A DNA stretch of 62,829 bases, counting the filler, from Rhabdomonas costata (Eukaryota), in NCBI GenBank assembly GCA_019059605.1. It is 22 parts of 22 records of this genome, joined end to end, with 100 filler letters (N's around TTAATTAATTAA, not from the genome) between each part and the next. Parts side by side here need not be neighbours in the genome. Positions count along the whole stretch, not along the records: positions 37,226 to 39,982 come from JAHMHO010002138.1; positions 40,083 to 42,839 come from JAHMHO010002139.1; 20 more parts are not named here. One strand, written 5' to 3'. The position numbers and the translations under genes were made by a program. A model generated the notes under the pieces. It made no database searches. It had not been told where the DNA came from and saw only the letters and a list, made by a program, of their open reading frames with translations. The stretch's first letter is position 1, and the number at the start of each line of letters is the position of its first letter. Shown piece by piece: positions 5,720 through 57,719 of this stretch.

Positions 5720-8479
5720 GGGTTTTGGTGCAAAGCATGGACAATCTCCGCTCTTCCGCCTGATGGTTTGCAAGTGCCACCGCATCGAACCCTCTTCAAG
5801 GGCGGCCCGGCACAAAAAATAGAACGAAGAAGCCCTCATACAGTGATTGCGCGGGAATTCGCAGTTCACCGCGCGACAATCGCCGCGAATCACCGTTTAG
5901 GACCCACGAGCACGAGCGTGATCGAGACCGTAAAAGGAGCGGCCGGAGCAGCAACTGGGAACGCGACCGAAACTGAGCATGATAGAGTCAGAGACGGAAG
6001 CCACAACGCGGAGACGCCACAGACGCACCCCACCACGTGAAGAGTCGTACTACCGTACTACACGAGGCCCTCGTCTCCTAACCGGGACCGCCAGGAAGGT
6101 AGGCCTAACGATACTCCAAGAGAACCACAAGCAAGGCGAGGTAGGCCATTTTATCAAGGAATGTTCAGATAGTAGGAGGGTTTCGCCCAGAGGAACGTGA
6201 GTGGTGGGGATGGTAAGAGGCCGAGTTTTGAGAGGTTAAACTGGGGCGGTAGGTGGGCGCCTGTCTCCCGAGGAGTGTGCGAGCCCCACGCCACCTATGA
6301 GGTCAGAGCGTGTAGTTGTATGAACATGGAAGAGTCACACACAAAGTACCATACCAGTACCAGCACCAGTACCGGTGCCAGAGATGATTCAGTGTTGAAC
6401 TAGTCGTCAGAAGCTGTTATCGTCGTGGATGAGTCACCTCCAACAAGCTGCCTGCTTCCTTGCGTGTGTTGCGCATTGTACAGTAGTCCAATTAGTGGGT
6501 GGAGTCGTTATAGGAATCACCAGGTGTGATCCGGACGGAGTGCCCACCTAAAACAGATGGAAATGAGATGGGAACCGCCCAGTACTGTCATCAACGTGCG
6601 GTACGCCAGTGTTATGGAAGTCGGAAGTTTCAACTCAGACATCATTTCACCTTCCAAATACCGACGTTTGCGAGGAGCGACGTTCGTACCTTCATCGTCC
6701 CCGACTAACGTGCGTTGCGTAGCTTGCACCACCTCCGGAATGCCAGCCGGAGTCTCTGCCGCGTGAACTGCAGGCAGAGCCCCCGTTGGGCAACCCAATC
6801 TCGCTGTTTCGTGATTTTCAACCAGCGAAAGTGGGCAGTGTTTTGCGGGCTTTTGAGTCATCGGCTGAAATATAAACCGGAGCCAGCGGCTCACTGCCTA
6901 GTAGCCTCCCCGAGTTGCGAGATGCATTCTGTCCGTCTTGTCTTCGTCTCCTGTACCCAAGAGTGAGAATGGGGAGTGGGGAAAATGGCACTTTGACCCA
7001 AGACCCGAACAATTGTTTCTTCCTGACTATTCCTCAATCTTCCTCCCAATCTGCTTCCCGAATCTGGCAGACGTTTGCAGTGACAAAATCGATCCACAAG
7101 CGCCAAAACCTTGCTTTTCCTACCACTTACCTGTGGAAATCATACCTTCCATTCCCTTCTGGATTTGTGCGCCACGGACTGTTTCGGAGCATCACATTCC
7201 GCGAGGACTATTAGAGCCTTTAAAAATTCCCAAACAAAAATGGGAATCGGTCTCTATGGACTGGACGGTTGTGGATGAGTGCTCAACGCCGGTCACCTGC
7301 GGACCCATCGTATTCAATCAGATACTCACAGTGACAGAAAGGGGAACTAAAATGGTTCACCATATTGCTAACAACAAGCACCATATCGCTCGAATGACAG
7401 CCACGAAGTTTCTAAATGCAGTGGTTTGCTACCACGAGTTTCCACGAAGTATAGTCTCTGACCGTGACACCATGTTTACTAGTGATTTGTGGAAAACTCT
7501 TTGCGTGGCCATCGACATCAAAATACTAACTTCTATCCCCTACCACCCACAAACTAATGGGCAAGTAGAACGGACCAACCAAACCTTGAAGCAATAATTT
7601 CGTATATAACACCTCCAACAACCTACCATCCCATGGGTCCACCACCTGCCACTCGCCGAAATGGCCATCAACAACGCCCCAATTGCTGACACCGAATTCA
7701 GTCCCTTCTACCTTAACTATGGCTTCCATCACGTCATTTTGACAATGTACCCGACGGAGTCGATCACGAGGATTCAGAACAAGAAACTGTCAAGCAGTTT
7801 GTCAAGCGGCCCCACAAGTGATGGAGAGACGGCCTTTGATGAGAACCAGCAGCGTATGGTCCGACAAAGCAAAGTGACTACCAGTTTAAAGTCGGAAAAA
7901 TGCTTTCGGTCAATCAAAGCAAGCACCAGCGAAGCTTTGGACCTCTGACTCCCCTGTTGCAGAAAGCAGGAGGACCATTTTTCATCAAAAAGTTGTTAAT
8001 ATGACTTCTATGGAGCTGGACATCACACCAGAACTCCTCGGAGCGTGTAGTAGTGTGTAGTGTGTAGTGTGTAGGGCTAGCTGATCACTTACCAAGTTTG
8101 CATCAACAATCACACTGCCTTCGTGCCGGAAGGCGAGGACGACATCGACGATACGGGACCGTGACCACCAGGTCACAAAACCCCACAACCACCCAACTCG
8201 ATTCGACCTCAGTGTCATTCTCCCTCAACACTCACATCCTCACCCTGTTTCTCCACATCCACCACAACCCTCCGCTTCTCCTCCACCTCCTTCCCGCACC
8301 TCGTCGTTTGACTCCCGTTTGATGGTCCCTTTCGACGTCATTTTGCACTCCCTACAGCTCGCACCACAGCCCACTCTTCCACAGCCGGACCGCTTTTTTC
8401 TGCTTCATTCACTACACTTACGTGGCTATGCCGTACACATCTGTGGAACACTGAAGTGTACCACATGGCGATCAACAAC
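5720..8479 (+). mobile_element. Decayed Ty3/gypsy LTR retrotransposon fragment (gag remnant plus integrase)
   Basis: R/E/D-rich gag-like segment with a GHFIKEC zinc-knuckle remnant near 6140, an integrase core, and a GPF-type motif near 7970. Multiple stops and frameshifts. Confidence 0.85.
7198..7735 (+). pseudogene. Gypsy integrase core, interrupted
   Basis: GLLEPLKIPKQKWESVSMDW, PRSIVSDRDTMFTS, YHPQTNGQVERTNQTLKQ*, then WVHHLPLAEMAINNA..FSPFYLNYG after the stop at 7595-7597. Confidence 0.92.
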
Positions 8480-9277: not shown

Positions 9278-11048
9278 GGGGGTCCTGCACACGCGTACCT
9301 CTTTTTTGAGCAGGATGTTCTCCTGCACGATCACCTCCTTGGACATCGCCAGCCGGGAGAGCTCATCTTCGAGCTTGACGACCTGCAGGCCCGTGGTCTT
9401 TGTGACCTCCGCAACCTACGGCAAAAGGAGGGAGGGAGTAACCACTCCACCGGGATATAAGGCAAACACGAAAAGACAGAAAAGAAGAAGAGATGACGTC
9501 ACATGGACCACATCGCAAAAAAAGTTCACTTGTGAGCGAGAGAGAGAAAGAGACAAGAAGAAGGGCAGAGAGAAGGGCGTCAGCACTGAGTACCGCAAAA
9601 GGGGTGCACACGGAGGCAGAAAAAGAGCGCTGCGGCGGTGCATGCGTTGTTTGTGAGGGTGCGGATGGTGGTGTCCAGGTGTAGCAGAAACCGTGCCGTC
9701 TCTCCCTTCCAGTGCGCCTTGAGCTGTGTGCATACAATCCGCATCTAAATTTGGAAAGCCAGGTATCATTTGAACCAAGTGCCACAAATCCTCCCCCCCC
9801 CCAAAAAAATATCATGGTTGGGCTTCAGCTTTCAACTGTGCTTCCTGTACGATCGGGACCCGGGCAGTTGAGTGGTGAGGGTTTTTAGTACAACGGCCCG
9901 AGGGGGGGGGGCGTGGGCGCATCACTCTTGAGGACTGGGAGAGCGTGCGTTATTATATGGAACCACTTTTTCTGTAGCAAGTTTTGGCTTTGTCACTATC
10001 ACGCGGATCAGGTTATGTGCGAAGGTGCGCACATTTTGATTCAGAAATATGACATTCTTCTGTCATTTGTTCTGTTGTTGTGTTTTTGTACGCTTTGCCC
10101 CATCGGCACAAGTGCTGCCAGAACGGTGACAAGATTGTGTTCGTGGGAGGCTTAACCACGGTTTCAGTCGCTGAATGTGCACAGAGGCAGATTCATTAGC
10201 TTGCCAAAACCCGAGAAAGATGGGACTGGACCGCAGCAACGGATACGTCGACATTTTTGCATGGAAATGATGCGCCTTGCTTATGGGCAAGAGGATGAGA
10301 AACCTAGAAAGGTCTACTTGCAAGAGATGTACCGCTTGCATGTCAAGAAAACATAATTTTAATTCTGTTCGAAAAGTGCACCCGAATACATGCGGAAATT
10401 AGGAACACGAATCTCCCACAGAAAAAAGTCGTCTTGGTGAAGTGCACGAATTTGTGGTTGTGGGTGTGTGCATTTGTTAATTTTTGAGCCAGACAAAAGT
10501 ATGCATGCCCTGCCAATGATAAAAGTCTGGTGACGCTCGGTCGTCGAAGTAAGATACCGTCCTGATTTCAACTCATCTCTTGCATACCTGACACATTCAC
10601 ATTACACACCTGCCAAGATCGGAGACGAGAAGGGTAGTGAACACCATTACATTGCAGAAGCACACTGGATCTCTTCGGGTGACGCCCCCCCCCCAAATAC
10701 CACCTCAGAATCAACCCAGCTCTGATGAGGGAAGCATGCGTTTGTTCACGTTTCAAAAAAAAAAGAGGTGCCTCTTCTCAAACTTGAAATGAGATAAAAC
10801 TTCTCAAATTTCAGAGTAGTTTTGTCGCTCCCCTTCCGCGTCGATATCCGCCAGAAACGGTGCACACAGCAATACAAGAGGAAATGGGAAAGGGGAGGAA
10901 AGAGACATGAAACGTGAATGGGGGGCACCTCTTTCCGGGAGATCTGCTCTGCGGAGAGGATCTCTGCACGGGCCCGTTCCTCGTCGCTGCCAACCTCCAC
11001 CCGTTGCTCCTCGTGCTGCTCCTTCAGCGCGGCCTGCTCTGCGGCCTT
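8671..11048 (-). CDS. Coiled-coil protein of unknown function (partial, multi-exon)
   Basis: GT-AG bounded E/K/Q-rich exons near 10930-11048, 9298-9415, 8906-8966 and 8671-8766 (e.g. LKQMEAEREAKGKEHEEAVVELNRRLAKQLSE). Confidence 0.6.
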
Positions 11049-12307
11049 CTGGGAAAAAACACGAGGGGGGGGGGCACGCACATGAGAGACGATGACAAAA
11101 AAGATAATAAATAACTCAGCTGGGAAAGGCAAAAGAGATATACAGGCGCGTGAAATCCTAATCTGGTGGAAAAAGCGTTCTTGCAAAGGGGAGAAGCAAG
11201 TCAATCCGATGCATGTCAGGTGCAGCTGGCTCCGACCGGTCTGCTGCTGCGCTATATCCACTTTGATTTTCGGACCGTAGCATAGCGATGCACACTGAGC
11301 GTGAAGGAAAGACGGATGCCCCTCCAAGCATCCCCTCTCATCCCCCCAACGCCCTTCCAACCACAANNNNNNNNNNNNNNNNNNNNNNNNNNNNNNNNNN
11401 NNNNNNNNNNTTAATTAATTAANNNNNNNNNNNNNNNNNNNNNNNNNNNNNNNNNNNNNNNNNNNNGGGGACTGGAACCTTCATTTGTGCCCTGCTTTGT
11501 GGGACCCTCATTCTCAGGCTGCTGCAAAAACTTTTATGATGGGTTTCAGTGCGCTGGGGCGTAAAAATTGCCTGTGTCTTTTGAAAAGCTTGCATTGGAG
11601 TGGTGATAGGTGATGTGGCTGAATATACGATTCAAACGAGAATGCTTGGTCGTGTCGGTTATTTTCCTATATTGATATTTACCAGGACTCGGGTGCCATT
11701 TTGAGCCTTTTCGGTTTCACTTTCCCTGTCTGTTGGGAGACTCAGACGAAAGCTTTGTGGTTGTGTGTTCTCCTTCTGTTTGTCGTCATGGACAAGTCGA
11801 TGGCCTGTTGACAATGTCCGCCGCTGTGCTGTCCTTCGGACTGGAAAGCGGGGCTAACGTGGCGAGCCAGGAGCTTCTTCTGGGTTCAGGTTGACTTCCA
11901 CATCCTCCAACTCCCTCAGCGTGTGTGCAGGTCGCTTCATTCTATTTCAAATGAAAGCAGAAAGGGAATTTGTGAAGGGGGCACCCCTCTGCAGAAGTGC
12001 ACTGTTGTCATCATTCGTGCCCTTTTCCACGCTGGCTGTGTCTATGTGCTCCCTAGATCACGGACACCTGAACAATTGTGGGTCTGTGTGTTGACCCTAC
12101 ATTTTGACCGTTGGCACTCATGTTCCAGCGATAACGAAAAGAGAACTGCAGTAACCATCACCTTAACCTTATGTTACGGTCCTCGGCTCTTCGGCAGCCA
12201 CAGCAGGCCGTTCCATTTTCTGGCGGGTTGTGTGGCTGTGGCGTATCTGGCGATGACCGATCACGCTTCTGGGTTCTTTCTCAGTTTTTTTCGCTTCTGT
12301 CGTTCAG

Positions 12308-14325: not shown

Positions 14326-14452
14326 CACTGGGGCAAAGAAAAGTGTAGCGGGCCAAAAACATCCCTAAAACGGCCTTTACAAAACAAATATTTGGCATTT
14401 TGTGGGTGTAAAGTGTCGTTGTCGAGGATTTCCAGGTGCCTCCTCCAGAATG
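14326..14452 (+). repeat. 127-bp terminal direct repeat, left copy
   Basis: Matches 16959-17085 with 3 substitutions. Confidence 0.95.
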
Positions 14453-14723
14453 CAGATGAGTATCGTGGTCGGGAGGTAACCTCTTACCTATCTAATTGAC
14501 TAATTAAACTTTATCCACAGGCATGATTTTAACACTTGGCACTTTTGGCACTTTTGGCACTTTTTACGCTTTCAAAGATCTTCTGGAGAGGAAGTGTGAT
14601 CACCGGTCTTTTACTTGGATGGTATAATTGGATGCTCTGGAAAAGCTGCAAAAATGGCAAAACGCATCTTGGATGGGACAAACCACTTGTTTTGGATTTG
14701 CGGAGAGAAACAAATCAAATACA

Positions 14724-14795
14724 AAGTTTGACCCAGGACTCGAACCAGAACTTCCCAACTATGAGATGGCTATTTCCTATTTGAGCCTGAAACTT
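14724..14795 (-). other. Degenerate tRNA-like / Pol III A-box and B-box element
   Basis: Minus strand: aagttt..aaactt acceptor-like stem, aggctcaaatagg A-box-like motif, ctCATag loop, perfect GGTTCGAGTCC B-box. Stems are imperfect. Confidence 0.4.
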
Positions 14796-15314
14796 CCAGT
14801 ATTGAATTGCGGTCGGCGGACTTCAACTCTAGCAGCATACAAGAAAAGACATGCAATTTGTAATATTTGGTTTTGTGACCCAGACAGAGCACTATGTGTG
14901 TTGGGGGGGCGAATTCTTAACTCAGAAATCGACGTTTTTGGCTCCACTGAACAATGCACGCGGGGAAGGCAAAAACAGCCTTTGTAAACTCCTTTTTTTG
15001 CCTTTTCTGGTGTATAAAGATAGTAAAAGGCTGGGGCTGCGGCTGGAGTGTTGGCCACTATATACTTCCTGTAGTCAAACTCCAGGATTTTGTTGTCGCT
15101 TCCTTGTTTTCACCTGTACTTAAAGATGTTTGTACTTTGTCCCAGCAAATTCTAAAATTGCATTTTCGTTGTGTAAACGCACCCCCGACCAATAAAAATA
15201 GGGTATCCAAAACAGCGATACCAGAAGCAGTGATTCTCTTTGGTTTTAAATCATGCCTGATGAGTTCCAAGCGTTTCCGTTTCATTTCTAAGGCTAAACG
15301 TTCGTGCATTTTCT

Positions 15315-15388
15315 GCCCAGAGCATGGTTTGAAACCCCGTGAACTATGCAACAATAAGCGATTTTAATAACCACTGCGCCACGCTAGA
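15315..15388 (-). other. Second degenerate tRNA-like element (initiator-Met-like ends)
   Basis: Minus strand AGCGTGGCGCAGTGG (A-box) ... GGTTTCAAACCATGCTCTG (B-box-like). The central arm does not fold. Confidence 0.3.
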
Positions 15389-16958
15389 GCCTTAGTAAAG
15401 AAAACGGGGGCTCCCAACATAACCATTACATCAATATCACCACATTTTTCTTAAGATTTCTGAACTATTTTAGATGCTCATTCAAACTTCCTCATCTTTT
15501 TGAAATTTAACTAAATGTGTCTGTGTTATTACAAAGCCTGATTGGCAATAACTGGTAGAATTGGCAAATGTGTCGTAAGTGTTTTTAAAATATTGCGGTG
15601 GACACTTTTATTTGGCGAACTCAAAAAGTAGGAAACCAGTTTCTCCCCTGTAAAACTCCTGAAAACACAAACTCAGACCAAAAAGTGCTATAACTGGTTT
15701 TGAAAAGAGACTCAAATTAAGACAAGGATAAAATTCAGGTACTTATGGATACCAACGAGCTCGGCTGACAATGTTTTTGGTGGTATGCTTTTCAGAACAA
15801 AGAGGGGTCACAGCATCTTTGTATCTAAATGTAGATTTTTCTCCACCTAAAAACATTCAATCAGAAAGTGTCTCATTTTTACAAGAAGGCACACAAAACG
15901 AGAGTCTCATAAGTTCGCCAAATAAAAGTGTCCACCGCAAAGTAATGAGGTTTTTGTTGTATTTGGATAACTTTAGTCAATGTGCTAAATGTATGAAAGT
16001 AAAAGTTTTGGTTTTTGAGCAAATTTGTGTTTTGGTCCGAGATTTTAAGCTCTCAGCAAATTAGTATTGTATCTCTTTTTATGTTATCAGCGGAATCTAA
16101 ACTCTATGATTGACTTTGCTTAAACTTAGACTCATAAACATAAAGTTTCATTGCAATGTTGTTCTTGCCCACTTTTCGCTAATCTACGACATCAGGAGGA
16201 ATTAACACCATTTGATGAATGCATTACCAACGCATGAGGCATCATCACACATTCCTACTGCTGTTAGATTTTGTCACAATACACAAAAACAACAGAACCA
16301 GATCAAAATATCCTACACAACAACACATCACAAGACGCCATTAAAACAAGACACAGCAATGCCCACATAACAAAAAGTATCGCACAAATTTACCACAATA
16401 CCACATACACATAAAAAACATAGAACAAAGAATAGGACACCCTACAGCGCTGGATACGAACGACAATACGACTAAGAAGAGCAACAACTAAAGCTAATAC
16501 ATTTCCTAAATAAACACCCATAAACCAACTCCAAAATGTCCAGAAAAAACACCCCGTGGAATCTCGTAACCGTAACGATTGCAGGTAAGAACAAGATATC
16601 GGAAACAATAACTCAACTAATAAACAAAAAGCAAAAAAGAACGCTTACCCTAAGAGAAGCAGTCACAAACACACACACCACGCAACAAACTGGAGCATTC
16701 CACCCCACAGAATGCCAAGAAACCGCACAAGAGGTTACGAGCAAAGAGCTCGCACACACGCGCGTGAACCCTTGCAACCGACTGTGTAGCTCTTATCCAC
16801 GTAACAAAAGGTCTTCAATGTTTGTGTGTGCTTGGGTGTTTTTTTGTGTTGTTAGTGCTATGAACATGGTTGCAGTGTATGCTGTGAGCTGTGTTTGGTG
16901 GTCTTTAGTTGTGAACATTTCCTGTTGGTGGAAGGTAGAATTTTTGGATCAAAACTCA

Positions 16959-17085
16959 CACTGGGGCAAAGAAAAGTGTAGCGGGCCAAAAACATCCCTA
17001 AAACGGCCTTTACAAAACAAATATTCGGCATTTTGTGGGTGTAAAGTGTCGTTGTCGACGATTCCCAGGTGCCTCCTCCAGAATG
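16959..17085 (+). repeat. 127-bp terminal direct repeat, right copy
   Basis: Matches the contig start 14326-14452, giving a unit length of 2633 bp. Confidence 0.95.
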
Positions 17086-33985: not shown

Positions 33986-34379
33986 CATGTGGGAATGTGT
34001 GTGTGCAGGTAGAAGCGGCAGAAGAATGTCCGGGCAAAGTAAGTAGTAGGGGGGAATTCCTTATAATGCGTATACACGTATAACCCCGTTATGCGTGTGT
34101 AATGGTGGTTTGCATATAACGCCGTGATACGCATATCGGCGTTATACGACACTAAGCTCTGAAAAATCCCAGGTGACACGTGAATTGCAAACCTAACCCC
34201 CTGCGAGACGAAATAACCTGGACAGAGTTGCCTTCATCCTAACGAGACCAGCGTGTTAGACCATGATANNNNNNNNNNNNNNNNNNNNNNNNNNNNNNNN
34301 NNNNNNNNNNNNTTAATTAATTAANNNNNNNNNNNNNNNNNNNNNNNNNNNNNNNNNNNNNNNNNNNNGTTTGTGGTGT

Positions 34380-35604
34380 TGTTGCACAAAGGTGTTGGCC
34401 CGGCGCTGCTTCAGGTGGATTTCGGCCTTCCTGAGCTGCTCCAGAATCTTCGCCAACCCAACACCTTTGTGCAACAACACCATAAGCTCATGGGACAAGT
34501 TAGTCCTCTAAATAAGCGGGAGACCCGCTGACGGAAGGGAAGGCGGGGAGGGGGGGGGCAACTCTTTCCTTTGCGGGCTACTTCGATTCTGTCAGTTTCG
34601 TGCTTTATTCATTTTTTCAATGGCTCTTGATCAACGTTCACAAATATGTGCTTATCGGGAAAAGGTCCCTTCAAATTCGCTCCTCCCCGACAGCGGCGGA
34701 GCGCTTGCTTCTGTTCTTATCGTCTCTGTGAAACAGCTGAGCCTCGTGAATTCCAGGAAGCCTTCGCAATGCAGGGAGTTCGTCGCAGCGGGCGGAGGTG
34801 ACGGCAGGGAGGAAGAATAACAGGTTCAATTTCCCACAATCACAGGTTGGCACGATTGTTGTAGCGACAGTGGCACCAAGGCACAATGGAATTCGGCAGA
34901 AAGAGGGGAGCGGCAACTGGGAGATGGAAGAGGGAAAGGGTGAGGCCCAAGGAAGAAATAATGTGTGTGTTAAGAGGGCTAAGAGGCCGAAGGACCGATA
35001 TGAATGATGAGTGAGCACAAATAGTTTTGTCCAAAGTAGAAACAAAAGGTGACTGTCCCTTTGCAAGTGAACGTATGCCATGGTCGGAGTCGACAGCAGG
35101 ATTTTAAGGAGCAGTGAATGCGACCTATACTAAACCTACCACCGACCCACTCACCCCACACGACCCTGCCATCCCATGTCCGATGCCACCCATGCCTCAT
35201 CCATCATAACCACACCCAGGAATGGCAGGAGACATGCAAGCATCAATGACACAGAACAACCAACCCGATATAAGGCGGGGGCGGAACGGCATTACCAAAC
35301 CAACCGCACGACAGCTGCCTCCGCAAGGGGCGTGGTTCGGTATATGCGACCTTCGTTCCCTCCTTCGTCATAGGATAATTATTCAGAAGATTTTTTTTGA
35401 TCTGCCGGTCTGTTAAGAAGGAGGTTTCTTTCCAGAGCTTAAAGATACACGGGGCAATTGACCTCGGGAAAGGTCCACGTTCACCTTCGCTACACCCTCC
35501 GCAGAGAGCGCGCTGAGTAGCCGAGCCTCATCCTCATTAAGGGGATAACCCAGCTGCTCCGACAGGACTTGCGCGGGGGACGACGACGAGGAGTCAGAAG
35601 CCAT
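34380..35604 (-). CDS. Hypothetical protein, 5' exons
   Basis: ATG at 35604 after a pyrimidine tract, exon MASDSSSS..LSALSAEGVAK|gtgaac, and a further coding-like segment near 34380-34498. Confidence 0.35.
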
Positions 35605-37225
35605 CCAAGAAAGGGTACAAGGGAAAGTTCACAAAAAAGACAAAAGTAATGAGAAGTCCACCTCTGAGCGTACCACGCGAGTCATCAGGACAGACCTGGC
35701 GTCTGCTTTTTCCGGTTGGGAGGTCTTCTGTTTGGTAATGTGAGCAGCAAAGGTGGTGGGCGCGGGGCACTTCTTTTCGCTTCTACACGATTGTATCCTA
35801 CTCAAACAGCAGAGGGAAGCCCGCAGCGCAATTCCGAAGGCGTGGTGTCAGCAAATACACGGCAACCCGTTTGCATGCTCGGTGGAGACGGGAGCGTCCA
35901 TTTGCCGTGAAAAAGAGCCCTCTGTCACCATTGAACTTGAGTGCTGAACCCCTACTGAACATGTACTGTGATGTGCCATTCCCATTCACCTCATTCATCC
36001 TTCCCCACCCAACAAAAAGGGCCACAGTTCAAAGCTTGGCCATTTTGGAAGCTTTTTGTGAGGGCAAAGCCGAAGCAGGCCCGGGGTCTTTTGTGCATAC
36101 AGTTCATGGCTTCAAATGCACAATGCGAATTTTCCCCCAGCCCCCAACCCCAACGCAAAAGGGTCCTTGAAGCGTTCTGCACTCCTTAAACAACTTGCCA
36201 ACTGCGGGAACCGTATTGCATACCAACGATCCAAAGACGAGACATCGGGTCCACTTGTGATGAGACGAAGTGTCCAACCGTTCCCACCATCAAGAAAGAA
36301 TACGATTCAATTCAGCTCAGCGTTTCTTCATTGCATGCAATTCTGAGGCGGGCTTGAATGAGATATTCCAAGAGGTGGTACCACAACACCAATGCGCACG
36401 CCAGTGCTGAGGAAAGGGTACCTTCACAGGTGATCTCGCAGCAAACAAGAGCGACTTGCAAAAAAAAGAGGTGAGAGGTGAGAGGGAGGCAGCAAAGCAA
36501 AAGAGACCACGGACTATATACCGATGCAGGAAACACGACATAGTCAGCGCTTAAGCACACAGTTGCATCCTTTTCTGATTCTCCCAAGGTGACCATGGTG
36601 TTCACCTTTTCTATCCCACTTTTCCCCTCGCAATGTATCGCAACTCCACCCCACCCCATCCTTCCCATAATATGTATTGAGCACCACGGCTCTTGCCACA
36701 CCACACACAGCGAAAAGGTACACGGAGGGCACCATGCGATATCTCGTGGTCATCTAAGACAGGCACACAAGGAAGTCCTGGCAAAAGCGGCACGGCACTT
36801 TTTTTATCAGCAACACAACACAAACCGGTAGCCCCGTTACGTGCAGCAGAGGAAAGAGGAACCACAAACCAACGGTGCATGGAACTAGGACCACGAAGAG
36901 AGGGAGACAGGGAGGGCAGGGCGTACCACACCTGGGAATGTACAGAAAGTCACAAGAACAGAAAAGTTCTGCCAGAGAGTGTGGGTGGGTGTGGGTGTGG
37001 GTGTGGGTGTCTGTTGGTGTGGCCCCGTGCGGGCCACGCACGCCGCCAGCTGCGAGGCGGTCGAGCACGCGGGACCATCTGATAAAGACATCCCCACGTT
37101 CAATTCCGCAAAAAAACCACCACCCNNNNNNNNNNNNNNNNNNNNNNNNNNNNNNNNNNNNNNNNNNNNTTAATTAATTAANNNNNNNNNNNNNNNNNNN
37201 NNNNNNNNNNNNNNNNNNNNNNNNN

Positions 37226-37725
37226 GGTTTGGGGTGTTCTCCAATAAATAATAATATTCCAAGCATATTCATTGTGTTATCACTATTTAATAAATTATTT
37301 AATATTTTTGAAGTTTTTGTCAGTACCATTTTCCTAAAATCTATCGACTTATTTACAAAATGATCAGTTAGTTTTTTGCATAACACCACATACAAATTAC
37401 AATATACTTTCTCTTGTAATGCTTTTTGTAATATTATATCTATCATTTCATCAACTAAACTAACTTCTGATATGTTCAAATTTATCAATTGATCACATAT
37501 TATATTGAAATTTGCATTACTTATCTTATTTATCATCGATCTCATATTCATCAATATTTGTTCATTTTTTGGTTTTGTTATTTTTAATCCTATATGCGAT
37601 GATACAGGTACTACAGATCTCCATGAATCCGTTTTATTAGCATTAAGATATGTTTTTAATTCTTCTGGACATTCAATATTAATATCTTTATAGTTGTTTA
37701 TCAATGTAAGTGCGAATGATGCCAT
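37226..37725 (-). CDS. Viral eIF4G-like protein (MIF4G domain), 3'-truncated by the contig end
   Basis: MRSMINKISNANFNIICDQLINLNI..MIDIILQKALQEKVYCNLYVVLCKKL..FRKMVLTK..MLGILLFIGE follows the MIF4G HEAT consensus. Intronless and AT-rich. Confidence 0.88.
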
Positions 37726-37804
37726 TATATTATAAATAACTATTGTTTTTTAAATATTTTTAATTATGTTATGATTTTATAACATATATATTTTTATATA
37801 GTTT

Positions 37805-38140
37805 TTACTTTATTTTTTGTTTAAATTTTTCTTCTAATATCGAATTACTCTTTTCTAACGTTTTCAATCTTGCATCGATTTCATTTATCATATTGTCTAA
37901 ATTTATAATATATTTCATCATACATGACATTGTCATATCTAAGTCATCTGGTAATTTGTTATGTACTATATAATATGTTTTAGGTGTTAAAAGATTTAAA
38001 TTATGTGGAATTCCTACAGTCGTAGAACAATCGTTATAATTTTTGTTGAAACTAACATGTTTAGATTTTTGATTTGATTTTGTAGAATTGTTGCCCATTC
38101 TAGTATCTATATTTCCATCGTATAAATTAAAATTAAACAT
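37805..38140 (-). CDS. Viral hypothetical protein, 111 aa, C-terminal coiled coil
   Basis: Complete ORF with the same AT-rich codon usage and a heptad pattern LDNMINEIDARLKTLEKSNSILEEKF. Confidence 0.75.
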   Translation of the reverse strand: MFNFNLYDGNIDTRMGNNSTKSNQKSKHVSFNKNYNDCSTTVGIPHNLNLLTPKTYYIVHNKLPDDLDMTMSCMMKYIINLDNMINEIDARLKTLEKSNSILEEKFKQKIK

Positions 38141-38162
38141 GGCTATTTATAATCTTTCTTTC

Positions 38163-38193
38163 AAAATATCAAATAGTATATATTTGATATTTT
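38163..38193 (-). terminator. Mimiviridae-type 3'-end hairpin
   Basis: Perfect 13-bp stem AAAATATCAAATA / TATTTGATATTTT with a 5-nt loop, starting 7 nt after the corrected stop (38203-38201) of the capping gene. Confidence 0.8.
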
Positions 38194-38200
38194 TTCATAA

Positions 38201-39900
38201 TTATAAATTTTTTTGAAATACATAATATCTGTTTAACTTTGAAAATTTAAGTGATGCTGCATTAATTTCATCGTTTGTATAAAATTGTGCGATTAAATCT
38301 AAATATTTATTTGAATGTTCTTGTACATAGTTTGTGAAAAAAAATTTTATGTATATCATATGTTCTCTCAAATAAGTCTGTCTCTACTAATCTCATGTTA
38401 CATTTTGTCTTGAATTCATTTATTATAAATTGTGAATCTACTAAATATTCACTTACATGATTTGTTTCTGATATTGTCGCATTAAATACATCAATTTGAT
38501 ATCCTGTTCCTATTATATCATTATTTGAAAATTTATTGCTGTATTTTTTTATTATTTCAAATAATATTTTTTTATTTCCATTTTTCGTATAATATAACGT
38601 ATATCTATCACTATTTTGAAATAATTTGTTTATCTTATGTGCATCAAATGTTGTTATAAACATATATCCTCCTTGTTTCAAATATGTTTTTATATTACTA
38701 CATAAATTATTCCATTTCTCTTCTGATTCAAGAAAATAATGTATCGCAAATTGACAATTTATCCTATCATATGTTAACGAATTATTTAAATAACTTTTTA
38801 TATTTTCTTTATTCGTTGCCATTATTTTATCACTTTCATATTTCAATATTTTATCCTGTTCATTATTTGTTAATAGTTTACCTACATCCGCTAATATAAA
38901 TATTGTTTGTACTTTGTCACCTTTCATTTTTGAATATCGTGTTGTTGCACTATCATTTTCTGAAAATAAATTGTTATAATCTATATCTATTCCAACATAT
39001 AAATAAATGTTTGACTCACGCACTTTATGTATATCACCTCCTCTACCACATCCTAAATCTAACATAGATAATTTATTACCAAAATTTTCAGATGAACAAT
39101 ACTCCTGTATCAAATTATTCTTTATAAAGTTATGAAATTTCCTCATTGGATCAGCTAACGTTGTAACAACTTGATAATATGGTTTACTTTCTATAAGTTT
39201 TGTTTTACTTTTACTACATACACCATGTTGACATATCAGTTTTGTATCTGTTAATTTATCACTTACTTTTGTATCCATTTTCATATTTTTATCAGCAAGT
39301 ATTTTTATATCTGATATTTTTACTGGTTTCATTATACTTCTCCATACAAGATGTGCTACATTTATATAATTGCCATATTTCCTTTTATATTTTAACACCG
39401 ATATTGTCTTATCATAACGTGTTTTTAATGGTATCCATTTAAATTTTTCATAATATTTTGAATCCATATCATACACAAACTCAACAACTGACTTATCTGT
39501 TATTATACTATTTGTACTATCTCTTACTTCACCATTTTTTAAAAATATATATGCTATATGTCTATTTTCTTCTTTCAAAAATAATACTGGTTCTTCTATC
39601 GCATGATTATTCTGACCAACATATAAATAACAAATTTTATATGGTCTATCTTTTAGTTCTTCACTTGAATTGTCATAAGCTATTATATCTTTCCCTGTTT
39701 CTTTATCTTTTAGAAATTCAATATAAAAATCAATTGAATTTTTATCAGGAGGTTTCCATTTGTAGTCCAATTCTTTTTCTGCATTTGTTAGTGGTTGATA
39801 TATTAATCCATCCAATAAATAAGGACTATCTTTATATTTTTCCCACATTAACACAGAATATCTAAATATTTCATTATCTTCTTTCCCTAATACTAGAATA
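38201..39900 (-). CDS. NCLDV mRNA capping enzyme (guanylyltransferase C-terminal half plus guanine-N7 methyltransferase), 5'-truncated, one frameshift
   Basis: GTase motifs DGLIY, YKWKP, RYDK. MTase motifs MRKFHNFIK, LDLGCGRGGD, GIDID, CQFAIHYF, LKQGGYMFITT. The true C-terminus LNRYYVFQKNL* lies in a shifted frame after the A8 run at 38337-38344. Confidence 0.95.
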
Positions 39901-40275
39901 AAATATTTAGATATTCTGTGTTAATGTGGGAAAAATATAAAGATAGTCCTTATTTATTGGATGGATTAATATAACAACCACCNNNNNNNNNNNNNNNNNN
40001 NNNNNNNNNNNNNNNNNNNNNNNNNNTTAATTAATTAANNNNNNNNNNNNNNNNNNNNNNNNNNNNNNNNNNNNNNNNNNNNGGTGGTGTTCATAGCTTT
40101 GGGGCTTTTGTGGACGCTGCTATCCCTGGAGGCACTGAACGTAGAATTAGCACCGCAGAGAGGACCACCAGATGTGGACACAGGAATTCGGGCCGTGTTT
40201 TTCGTGCGCATTTTTGCCTGGTTCTCTCTTTTCTCCCGCGGCTTGTTCAGGTTGAATTTTCATTTTATTCACAAT

Positions 40276-51214: not shown

Positions 51215-52600
51215 GTTTGCGCCCCAACGTTAAATCGGTAGTGGGGGGGATAGTTCCCCAACGTTTTGGATTTTTCCATGGGGGTGTACCCACAATAATT
51301 TACGTTCGGCGAATCCCTTGAAATGGTCAAAATTGTCACTTTTGACCATTTCAAGGGATTCGCCGAACGTAAATTATTGTGGGTACACCCCCATGGAAAA
51401 AACCAAACCCNNNNNNNNNNNNNNNNNNNNNNNNNNNNNNNNNNNNNNNNNNNNTTAATTAATTAANNNNNNNNNNNNNNNNNNNNNNNNNNNNNNNNNN
51501 NNNNNNNNNNTTGTGTGGGTAGACACCTACACTACATTGTCGAAAGAGGCGCACCACGACATTATCCGAAGTGAAGGGAAACCGGGGCATCAGCCCTGTT
51601 TCAGCCCTTCCCGCATGGAAAGAATTTTCGGATACAGAGGAGCAAAGTGCAACCCCTCCCTTTAGAAACCAAAGTGAAGAGGCGTGTTTCAGAGTGCCCG
51701 GAATACAGGCTGCCTTTCTTTCTGCAGCCCTTTGCGTGATTGGTAGTGGTCCGCAGGCCTTCGCTCAATTCATCTTCGGTCCTTCGCTGGGCGTCCTTCG
51801 TCACAGCCTTTTTATTGGACTGCGTCCACGTATCTGAAGGTCTGCGCTTGTACATTTTTCGCAGAGAACAGTCGGCAACAAGTCACCAGGCTGCGGGTTC
51901 TTAATTTTGACCCGCACAGTTCTGAAGCTCAATGGTAACTTCCTTTTGTTTTGCCCTCCGGTATTTGCTCTGAGCGGTTGTTCTCCTCTTTCTCGCGCTT
52001 TCTGTTTCACGTAATACAGGAAGATCGACTGCCTTGGGGATTTAGCGTATGCCAATCGAAGCATCTCTCGTGTGAGGAATCTCTACTGCTCCTTCGTCAG
52101 CGGGGATGTGGAGCGGTTTCTTCGCGCTCTAAACTGCCGGTATTTGTCATTGTCGCCCTCGTTTCCCCTCCCAAAATCGCGCAGGTCGTGCTTTTTCAAC
52201 CTCATTCTGTGGACACCAGTCCTTGCTTGCTTCGATTGATGATGAGGTTGAGCTTTGTCGCCTTCTTTTCTCATGATGTCCCTTCAGGCTGACCTACGAA
52301 ATGTTCAAAGAGGGATGGTGCTTTGCCAAAGACAACGTCCTTTGCAAAGTCTATCGGCTGTTTAAGGTGCTGGATTTGTGTCTTTGATGTATTGCATTGC
52401 TTAGATACACAGCTAGCAAGGGCTCTCTCCGGCAGTGATTTGCGCACTGTCATGTACTTTCCCGCCCCTCCCCCCGTCCTTTCGCCTTTGCTGGTGGCCT
52501 TTCCGCTTTTCCATGTGTGGTACTTTGCTGCTTCACGGTATTTTTCTTCACGTGCTTCATTTTTCAGCTGGCGTCTTCTGGGCAGCTCTCGGGTATGCAG

Positions 52601-54196: not shown

Positions 54197-54662
54197 GTGC
54201 GTCACAACACACCCACACGCACGCAAACACACACACACCCCCACAACCCCCAAACACACCCCAACACNNNNNNNNNNNNNNNNNNNNNNNNNNNNNNNNN
54301 NNNNNNNNNNNTTAATTAATTAANNNNNNNNNNNNNNNNNNNNNNNNNNNNNNNNNNNNNNNNNNNNTGTGTTTTTGATGAGTGTCGCTAAACACTTTCT
54401 CGACCCTGTTTCTCGCACTGTAGAATCCTGTAGAATCCTAGAAATACTGGATCTTCCACCCGGCCTCGTCTCCGCCACCCATCGTGCACGAAAGAACGCG
54501 ATCACGGGGCACGGGGACCAGCACCTTTGCAGCGAGCAATTGTTACACACAACACACAGTGACGGGAACTACTGTACACATCAAAACAAACCCATGCCAA
54601 CACTCCCAGCCATGCGCACAGCGGGTCGACCCCAGTGATGTGGCCCTACGGGACACGACTCC

Positions 54663-56570: not shown

Positions 56571-57719
56571 GTAATTTCGTAATTTCCGTTGTATTCTCCG
56601 CGGCAGGATAGAGTGCCTCCGAGCGCACAACAACCACCTTCAGTATGGGTGCTTACGCCCAGTTCACTTCCCGTTTATTTCGGGAGGGAGCTCAACAACG
56701 GTGGACGGCCGCGCAGAGGAAAACTGAGGCCAGCACCAGCGGCTGGCGGTATGTGCATTGTTTTACATGTCACAAGCGAACCCACGCGGCGGCGAGTTCA
56801 ATTACACAGAAGAAAACGCGCGCGGCGAAGCGAGTAAGATACCAGTCGACGTCTTCTGCAAGGGAGCATGCGTTTACACCAACGTCGAACCCTTATAACC
56901 TGACAAACACGTAACGTACATGCCAAGCAAAACAAAGCACAGGCCCCCCGATGGGGGAGGGGGGGTATGCCCAAACCATCCCTTGGGCTATTGAAGGTCT
57001 CAAGCTGCTTGTCACAGTGGATTGCCACACCCTCAGAACCTCAGACTGCGGGTGTGGCAATCCACTGTGACAAGCAGCTTGAGACCTTCAATAGCCCAAG
57101 GGATGGTTTGGGCACACCCCCCNNNNNNNNNNNNNNNNNNNNNNNNNNNNNNNNNNNNNNNNNNNNTTAATTAATTAANNNNNNNNNNNNNNNNNNNNNN
57201 NNNNNNNNNNNNNNNNNNNNNNCCCCCCGCATATCAGGAACGAAAGCGGTGTGTGAGAGGCTCGGGTTCGGATTAGGTTCCATAGAAACGAAGCACACAG
57301 AGCGTAAGTTCCCCCCCTGACAGTAAACCACTGCCGTGAGGGGGGGGGGAGAAAACGAAAAGGGTTCGGGGTTGTTGTATGGCACCCCAACAAATATCGC
57401 GGAATCCATTACAGGCACTCCCCTTCCCTATGGAAGCTCAGCTTTAGTACCCCGCGGAAACCTCAGAGCAACGTATCGCGCTGTTTCGCTGCCCAATTCG
57501 AGCCGCCTGGGCGGCAGTTAGTTAGTCCCTGCATGCGATCTTGGGTAATGCGTAATGACCTTGTCCCCCTCCTGTACGGCTATGTGGGGGCCAGTAAGTA
57601 TTGCGGAGGGTACCCCACAAAAGCAAGCAAATCAAAACAAGCCAGCTTGACAGCAAGTTTGAGGGCAAATGGGGAGAGGGATGGGGTGGGATGGGGTAGG
57701 GGTCGAACCCGAGGCCCGT

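Follow-up and report, generated by a model that had tools for sequence, protein, structure and literature searches.

The window analysed here is a 62,829-base stretch of the Rhabdomonas costata assembly GCA_019059605.1, made up of 22 unlinked contigs (2750-2800 bp each) that are joined by N44-TTAATTAATTAA-N44 spacers. One of these contigs, at 37226-39982, carries the C-terminal part of a giant-virus mRNA capping enzyme, a small ORFan and the beginning of a MIF4G-domain protein, and the linkage of the two outer genes is conserved in related giant viruses. The contig is very probably a genome fragment of an unsequenced member of the Imitervirales (Mimiviridae in the wide sense) beside the named Klosneuvirinae, which was co-amplified and co-assembled with unrelated eukaryote-like DNA of ~50% GC and which carries part of a conserved 'cap module'. 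A preliminary description of this DNA had proposed a giant-virus contig; the giant-virus identity of the fragment is real and the gene-level reading in that description is correct, and what the present analysis adds is the conserved synteny of the cap module.

A viral capping enzyme on an AT-rich contig

Positions 37226-39982 correspond to exactly one contig of ~2.8 kb with a GC content of 0.235 (23.5%), and because the window is a series of separate contigs strung together, its neighbours are uninformative on linkage. Twenty of the other 21 contigs have GC contents of 0.48-0.55, and the remaining one (14326-17085) of 0.40. Three minus-strand open reading frames (ORFs), all without internal stops (533 + 111 + ~163 codons), are present on the AT-rich contig, with spacers of 166 nt (19% GC) and 79 nt (8% GC) between them and a GC content at third codon positions (GC3) of 13-21%. 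The three co-oriented, intron-free and very AT-rich genes of the preliminary description are thus confirmed, and the composition matches that of 64 related giant-virus loci from IMG/VR (median GC 24.7%, range 16.8-31.6%). The genes are as follows:

38307..39908, minus strand: capping enzyme, C-terminal part, 533 residues and stop codon; recognised by Pfam, homologue search and frame register
37805..38140, minus strand: ORFan of 111 aa, without homologue and longer than expected by chance
37228..37725, minus strand: MIF4G protein of the vIF4G type, N-terminal fragment (~163 genuine residues), running off the left contig end

The ORF proper of the capping enzyme is 38307-39854, and the genuine frame extends to about 39908. 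Two Pfam domains are recognised in it, mRNA_G-N7_MeTrfase (PF03291; 92.3 bits, cut-off 26.6) and mRNA_cap_C (PF03919; 28.4 bits, cut-off 26.5, residues 39-182), and the fragment contains the last guanylyltransferase motifs and the OB domain, fused in one frame to the cap guanine-N7 methyltransferase. The family-invariant columns DGL, KWKP..NS.DF and D..G.G.D are retained, and residues D266, G270, G272 and D274 of the glycine-rich motif that binds S-adenosylmethionine are invariant in 20/20 aligned sequences. The triphosphatase domain and the catalytic core of the guanylyltransferase, with its lysine motif, lie beyond the contig, and the N-terminal ~500-700 residues of the relatives are without counterpart here. 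The gene was therefore correctly named a capping enzyme, as both domains attest, but it is not a whole gene, with only the C-terminal 533 residues present.

A search with the capping fragment against longer proteins in a clustered collection of 5.8 billion proteins yields 1185 matches. The best 120 of these are 957-1347 aa long, with 42-48% identity, 96-100% coverage and 401-455 bits; the N7-methyltransferase domain is found in all of the 120 and the guanylyltransferase domains as well in most. Solved cellular cap methyltransferases, in contrast, score at most 54 bits. Organism names are attached to seven of the best 120, and these are Edafosvirus, Mimivirus LCMiAC01, Catovirus, Hyperionvirus, Fadolivirus, an 'uncultured virus' and a metagenome-assembled genome labelled Magnetococcales. 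We note that an IMG/VR viral contig (L007, 137,643 bp) encodes a protein identical to the Magnetococcales-labelled one, and the bin entry is likely to be a mis-binned giant-virus contig. Exact searches of the viral and metagenome contig collections with a 30-mer from the capping gene gave no match, and a scan of viral contigs with the capping fragment as a single protein found no relative; relatives of the capping enzyme were retrieved from the viral contigs with an alignment as the query.

Phylogenetic placement was examined with a 75-row tree of capping enzymes (LG+G4, quick search, supports from the Shimodaira-Hasegawa-like approximate likelihood ratio test, SH-aLRT). The window enzyme groups with four metagenomic enzymes (SH-aLRT 97; best identity 52%), and the next branches outward are L024 and L057 (95) and then L018 and L064 (88). 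Catovirus, Hyperionvirus, Edafosvirus, Fadolivirus and LCMiAC01 fall in a separate 41-row clade (95) with the window enzyme outside it, and L063 belongs to an 11-row clade. A 47-row mixture-model tree (28 of the 75 rows omitted; >700 aa after trimming) recovers the same four partners at 90 and places the window enzyme in a 33-row clade with the named viruses (97), leaving the deeper order within it open. As judged from these trees, the virus is a member of the Imitervirales beside, not demonstrably within, the Klosneuvirinae. An origin from a Mimiviridae-type virus (Imitervirales), as first suggested from the gene content, is thus supported by the tree against giant-virus references, by the best 120 matches and by the GC content. 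No relative of the capping enzyme closer than 52% is present among the 5.8 billion clustered proteins, and the contig adds a virus lineage.

The MIF4G gene and its linkage to the capping enzyme

The ORF at 37228-37725 matches the Pfam MIF4G domain (PF02854) with 49.5 bits (cut-off 30.8, E 5.5e-13), in agreement with the identity given in the preliminary description, although the gene is not whole but is cut by the left contig end. The encoded protein begins with an extension of ~50 residues that contains a Tyr motif, and the first HEAT helices follow. A PDB sequence search with the 166-residue fragment finds eIF4G2/DAP5 (1.8e-7), eIF4GII (4.4e-5) and also eIF4G1. Among proteins of near length there is no match, and a single-protein scan of viral contigs found no relative of the fragment; an exhaustive HMMER search gives 269 matches at E <=0.001, among them long proteins that are probably cellular and many proteins of 240-320 aa. 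From residue ~5 the fragment is collinear with small proteins of 240-330 aa, which are aligned from their own N-terminus.

An alignment of the window fragment with 25 MIF4G proteins from the giant-virus loci described below (26 rows, referred to as A2) has as common features an N-terminal extension with the consensus F..YK..N...P, a domain start LNK[LI]S..N and a FIGELY motif, and a Tyr is present at the aligned N-terminal position in about 17 of the 26 proteins, as read from the alignment blocks. The A2 profile finds the eIF4G1 MIF4G domain at 6.5e-43 and, more weakly, DAP5, yeast eIF4G, trypanosomatid EIF4G5, PAIP1 and CWC22. An AlphaFold2 model of the window fragment (predicted local distance difference test, pLDDT, 84.3) is all-helical from residue 53, and Foldseek ranks the DAP5 MIF4G domain first and the mimivirus vIF4G (9e5a_A) fifteenth, with a TMq of 0.53 and a probability of 1.00.

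The relevant viral counterpart is mimivirus R255, described as a minimal MIF4G protein that joins viral IF4E and IF4A in a viral IF4F complex, that binds IF4E through an N-terminal Tyr motif and whose crystal structure has been solved (bioRxiv 10.1101/2025.09.30.678621). In the same account the viral IF4F displaces host IF4F on ribosomes, the vIF4G homologues of the Klosneuvirinae form a separate clade and the mimivirus clade is highly divergent; the text of the Fadolivirus genome paper likewise names eIF4G among its listed factors (PMC8490762). The window protein fits the Klosneuvirus-type branch of this vIF4G family.

The genomic context of the relatives was compared in 71 giant-virus loci around relatives of the capping enzyme, with 6-kb flanks, of which 64 form the ingroup and seven (L065-L071) are distant. 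An iterated MIF4G profile identifies 42 ORFs, mostly of 240-330 aa, in 41 of the 71 loci. The 64 ingroup loci encode 56 distinct capping proteins, of which 34 have a MIF4G gene in their flanks; this gene is downstream on the same strand in 30, downstream on the opposite strand in one and upstream in three; in 13 of the 34 it lies within 150 bp of the capping gene. Where a locus has at least 4.5 kb of downstream sequence, a MIF4G gene is found in 30/39. Of the 17 contigs that are 100 kb or longer, 14 have a MIF4G gene near the capping enzyme, where random placement of a single gene would give 1.12, although this is not a count of independent events because the loci are related. The flanks of the seven distant loci contain no MIF4G gene (0/7).

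The preliminary description also reported capping and translation-initiation genes as adjacent, and this arrangement is indeed conserved in related giant viruses. In L018, L024 and L057, which are near the window in the tree, the MIF4G gene is 51-70 bp downstream of the capping gene, and in Catovirus (L004) and Fadolivirus (L011) it is 2.8 and 2.4 kb downstream, respectively. The corresponding gap in the window is 581 bp and contains the ORFan, and since the nearest located relatives have the two genes directly adjacent, the ORFan is plausibly a lineage-specific insertion that separated two ancestrally adjacent genes. On the other side of the capping gene, the flanks of 43 of the 64 ingroup loci contain an FtsJ-like methyltransferase gene, in most cases 100-500 bp upstream and in divergent orientation. 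This organization is well illustrated by L018 (3294-8445), which has a divergent FtsJ-like methyltransferase, the capping enzyme, MIF4G 51 bp downstream and then an XPG/FEN-type nuclease. L043 (3120-8548) has the same three-gene order with MIF4G 40 bp downstream, followed by an EF-Tu-type GTPase. A variation is seen in L007, whose MIF4G gene (about 10567-11406) is broken up into a 74-aa and a 111-aa ORF. No mention of a linkage between capping enzyme and vIF4G was found in the papers probed for it, bioRxiv 10.1101/2025.09.30.678621 and 10.1101/679175. The linkage, in many cases flanked by the 2'-O-methyltransferase at the opposite end, ties viral IF4F to cap synthesis in genome organisation.

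Intergenic features and artefactual contig ends

The smaller features of the contig are as follows:

38163..38193, minus strand: 13-bp perfect hairpin, 113 nt past the capping stop codon and 22 nt ahead of the start codon (ATG) of the ORFan; z -2.36, 4/200 shuffles as stable
37765..37786, minus strand: 8-bp hairpin, 19 nt past the ORFan stop; z -1.48, 21/200 shuffles as stable, not significant
37226..37238, no strand: G/T-only run of 13 nt, a primer-like, non-viral remnant
39973..39982, no strand: A/C-only run of 10 nt, a primer-like remnant at the contig end
39791..39981, no strand: fold-back palindrome with 85-nt arms (39791-39875 and 39897-39981), 98% complementary, and a 21-nt loop

The ORFan is longer than chance would give, as none of 2000 shuffles of 37726-38306 reaches 111 codons. 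It has no Pfam match and its best PHROGs match is at E 0.059; the search of the 5.8-billion-protein collection found no homologue at near lengths, no Atlas score exceeds 0.81, and tblastn against the 71 loci gives nothing below E 0.1. In a single-sequence AlphaFold2 model (pLDDT 57) residues 1-62 are unconfident, and a long C-terminal helix (65-110) is the sole confident part.

Genes of the Mimiviridae follow a 'hairpin rule', with a hairpin in the 3' intergenic region. The 13-bp hairpin at 38163-38193 is a candidate 3'-end signal, and the two intergenic stems together are weak evidence compatible with 3' ends of the Mimiviridae hairpin type. Of the inverted repeats, the 13-bp stem is thus kept as a candidate, the 8-bp stem is insignificant, and the largest, of 85 nt, is an artefact.

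Both ends of the AT-rich contig are artefacts of amplification or assembly. At the left end, which bears the G/T-only run, the MIF4G frame departs from FIGELY after FIGE, and similar runs are common in the window, with a G/T-only start of at least 9 nt in 13 of the 22 contigs and an A/C-only end of at least 10 nt in 13 of the 22. End runs on other contigs include 34369-34384, 37109-37125 and 54224-54267, and on one contig the A/C-only end is 44 nt long. These runs are putative untrimmed remnants of G/T-only degenerate primers as used in PCR (polymerase chain reaction)-based whole-genome or whole-transcriptome amplification, and if this is true, the outermost 10-17 nt at either end of contigs in the assembly are non-genomic.

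At the right end, the far arm of the fold-back is an inverted copy of coding sequence that interrupts the capping gene. The capping frame holds the register of its family (…KYFILVLGKEDNEIFRYSVLMWEKY…) to about 39908 and then enters the inverted self-copy, with the switch point at two copies of a palindromic octamer, AAATATTT, at 39864-39871 and 39901-39908. Similar terminal fold-backs are present on two of the 21 other contigs, both of ~50% GC, at 51265-51407 (143 aligned nt) and 56960-57122 (165 aligned nt). Because these two non-viral contigs end alike, the fold-back is a property of the library or the assembly, and those at 51265-51407 and 56960-57122 are inverted chimeras of amplification or assembly. 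The 85-nt inverted repeat was also considered as a viral terminal or transcript hairpin and rejected, because its position is within a coding frame and two non-viral contigs have similar structures.

Among the other contigs, we note that 14326-17085 (40% GC) is the sole other compositional deviant; it lacks primer-like end runs and its ORFs are uninformative. An Rfam search of the whole window gave no matches. A Pfam search of 10 long ORFs from the other contigs matched one, below cut-off: ORF 6905-7594 (plus strand), on a contig of ~50% GC, resembles the rve integrase core (E 5e-6, 27.2 bits, cut-off 32.6), a similarity that hints at retroelement-like sequence in the ~50% GC part of the window.

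Origin of the contig and comparison with known systems

A working scheme for the cap module can be drawn from these genes. The module consists of a trifunctional capping enzyme, present here from the guanylyltransferase end to the N7-methyltransferase, and a small MIF4G gene downstream on the same strand, with one lineage-specific ORFan between them. The capping enzyme would add the m7G cap to viral mRNAs made in the cytoplasmic factory, and the MIF4G protein may serve to scaffold an IF4F complex encoded by the virus, its N-terminal extension binding the viral cap-binding IF4E and its HEAT repeats the viral IF4A helicase. Viral IF4F could then bring the capped viral mRNAs to host 40S subunits, as shown for mimivirus R255. 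The tight, co-oriented linkage of the capping and MIF4G genes suggests that they share expression timing.

Several observations weigh against this interpretation and against the Imitervirales origin. The contig offers 2.7 kb of sequence only, and the 8-bp hairpin is no better than shuffled sequence. The mimivirus early-promoter octamer AAAATTGA has no match in 37226-39982, where only two upstream regions are present, and the rest of the window has two, against an expectation of 4.55. A MIF4G gene is absent from the flanks of 22 of the 56 distinct relatives, including the whole 11-row clade around L063. The MIF4G fragment scores equally well against long, probably cellular eIF4G-like proteins, the top two being 952 and 941 aa in length at ~5e-13, and because long and small proteins score alike, its viral assignment rests on collinearity, context and composition. 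Finally, the window's Tyr motif, Y-K-D-I-N-I, fits exactly neither the Y-X3-I-I pattern (bioRxiv 10.1101/2025.09.30.678621) nor Y-X4-L-hydrophobic, and as it matches neither published pattern exactly, binding of IF4E by the window MIF4G protein is treated here as putative.

The MIF4G matches raise the question of a cellular source, such as an AT-rich eukaryote present as prey, symbiont or contaminant and possessing a fused guanylyltransferase-methyltransferase. MIF4G is a eukaryotic domain, the two best fragment matches are the 952 and 941 aa proteins, and fusions of this kind are not exclusive to viruses, since kinetoplastids have one in Cgm1. The capping fragment, however, matches giant-virus enzymes with 401-455 bits and 42-48% identity against at most 54 bits for the solved cellular cap methyltransferases, the order of capping enzyme then small MIF4G is found repeatedly on giant-virus contigs of IMG/VR, the largest of them 527 kb, and the genes are compact and intron-free, with spacers of 79 and 166 nt; we regard a cellular origin as scarcely credible. 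A giant-virus element that became endogenous in the ~50% GC eukaryote by integration into its genome is somewhat less far-fetched but still improbable. The fragment is short, its true flanks are unseen as both ends are artefactual, and the other contigs include retroelement-like sequence (the rve match, E 5e-6 and 27.2 bits, under the 32.6 cut-off). Integration was among the situations envisaged in the preliminary description; the contig nonetheless has no junction with higher-GC sequence anywhere along it and nothing points to integration, its three frames are intact (533 + 111 + ~163 codons), and a GC3 of 13-21% shows no drift toward the composition of the other contigs.

The Imitervirales fragment could also be unrelated to the cell with which it was assembled, having come from a free virion, from ingested prey material or from cross-sample carry-over and then been co-amplified. 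The chances of this we consider about even; it is compatible with the Imitervirales assignment and bears on the host link only. The primer-like remnants and fold-backs are typical of amplified low-input DNA, presumably from a kit of the degenerate-primer type, such amplification copies any DNA present, no tie to a host is visible on the contig, and nothing in the window counts against it. The contig alone cannot tell infection, ingestion, attachment, integration or carry-over apart. In a broader reading, a deep unsequenced Imitervirales lineage was physically present inside one protist cell or on its surface, and the preliminary description took this cell to be diplonemid-like. The cap 2'-O-methyltransferase, the capping enzyme and the IF4F scaffold would, in the same reading, form a linked module in giant viruses other than the mimivirus genus proper, inherited and probably expressed together. 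This reading is speculative and on balance unlikely as a whole. If it were true, the contig would give the diplonemid-like group its first genomic trace of a giant virus. A proven link of this kind would be notable because, in the account of a 2021 review, viruses of diplonemids were without experimental verification as of that year (PMC8061765).

The same review describes Bodo saltans virus, a giant virus of the Mimiviridae family with a kinetoplastid host, as the only documented DNA virus of a kinetoplastid and of the Euglenozoa (PMC8061765). Its euglenozoan host would make a diplonemid-associated relative plausible.

The capping enzyme itself resembles the mimivirus R382-type enzyme in having the guanylyltransferase OB domain and the N7-methyltransferase in one polypeptide with the invariant columns retained. 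It differs in that the R382 type comprises triphosphatase, guanylyltransferase and N7-methyltransferase whereas the window has the C-terminal 533 residues only, and its closest sequence is 52% identical. The MIF4G protein is like vIF4G (R255, PDB 9E5A; and the Klosneuvirus type) in its MIF4G/HEAT domain and in an N-terminal extension of ~50 residues with a candidate Tyr motif, and the contig stops short of its C-terminus. Its sequence is closer to cellular eIF4G/DAP5 than to R255, and 9E5A chains are absent from the matches of the A2 profile at E 0.01, in agreement with the high divergence reported for the mimivirus clade (bioRxiv 10.1101/2025.09.30.678621). Homologues are found in the Catovirus (L004) and Fadolivirus (L011) loci.

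The arrangement of these genes provides a further comparison. In mimivirus, R255 is not next to R382, as judged by gene numbers, whereas in the window the MIF4G gene is close to the capping gene. Mimivirus R382 and R383 are described as a pairing of capping enzyme and 2'-O-methyltransferase (bioRxiv 10.1101/2025.09.30.678621), and an FtsJ-like methyltransferase is likewise near the capping gene in the relatives of the window, whose own contig ends before this upstream side. Relative to the R382/R383 pair, these relatives have a third member, the MIF4G gene, on the other side of the capping enzyme.

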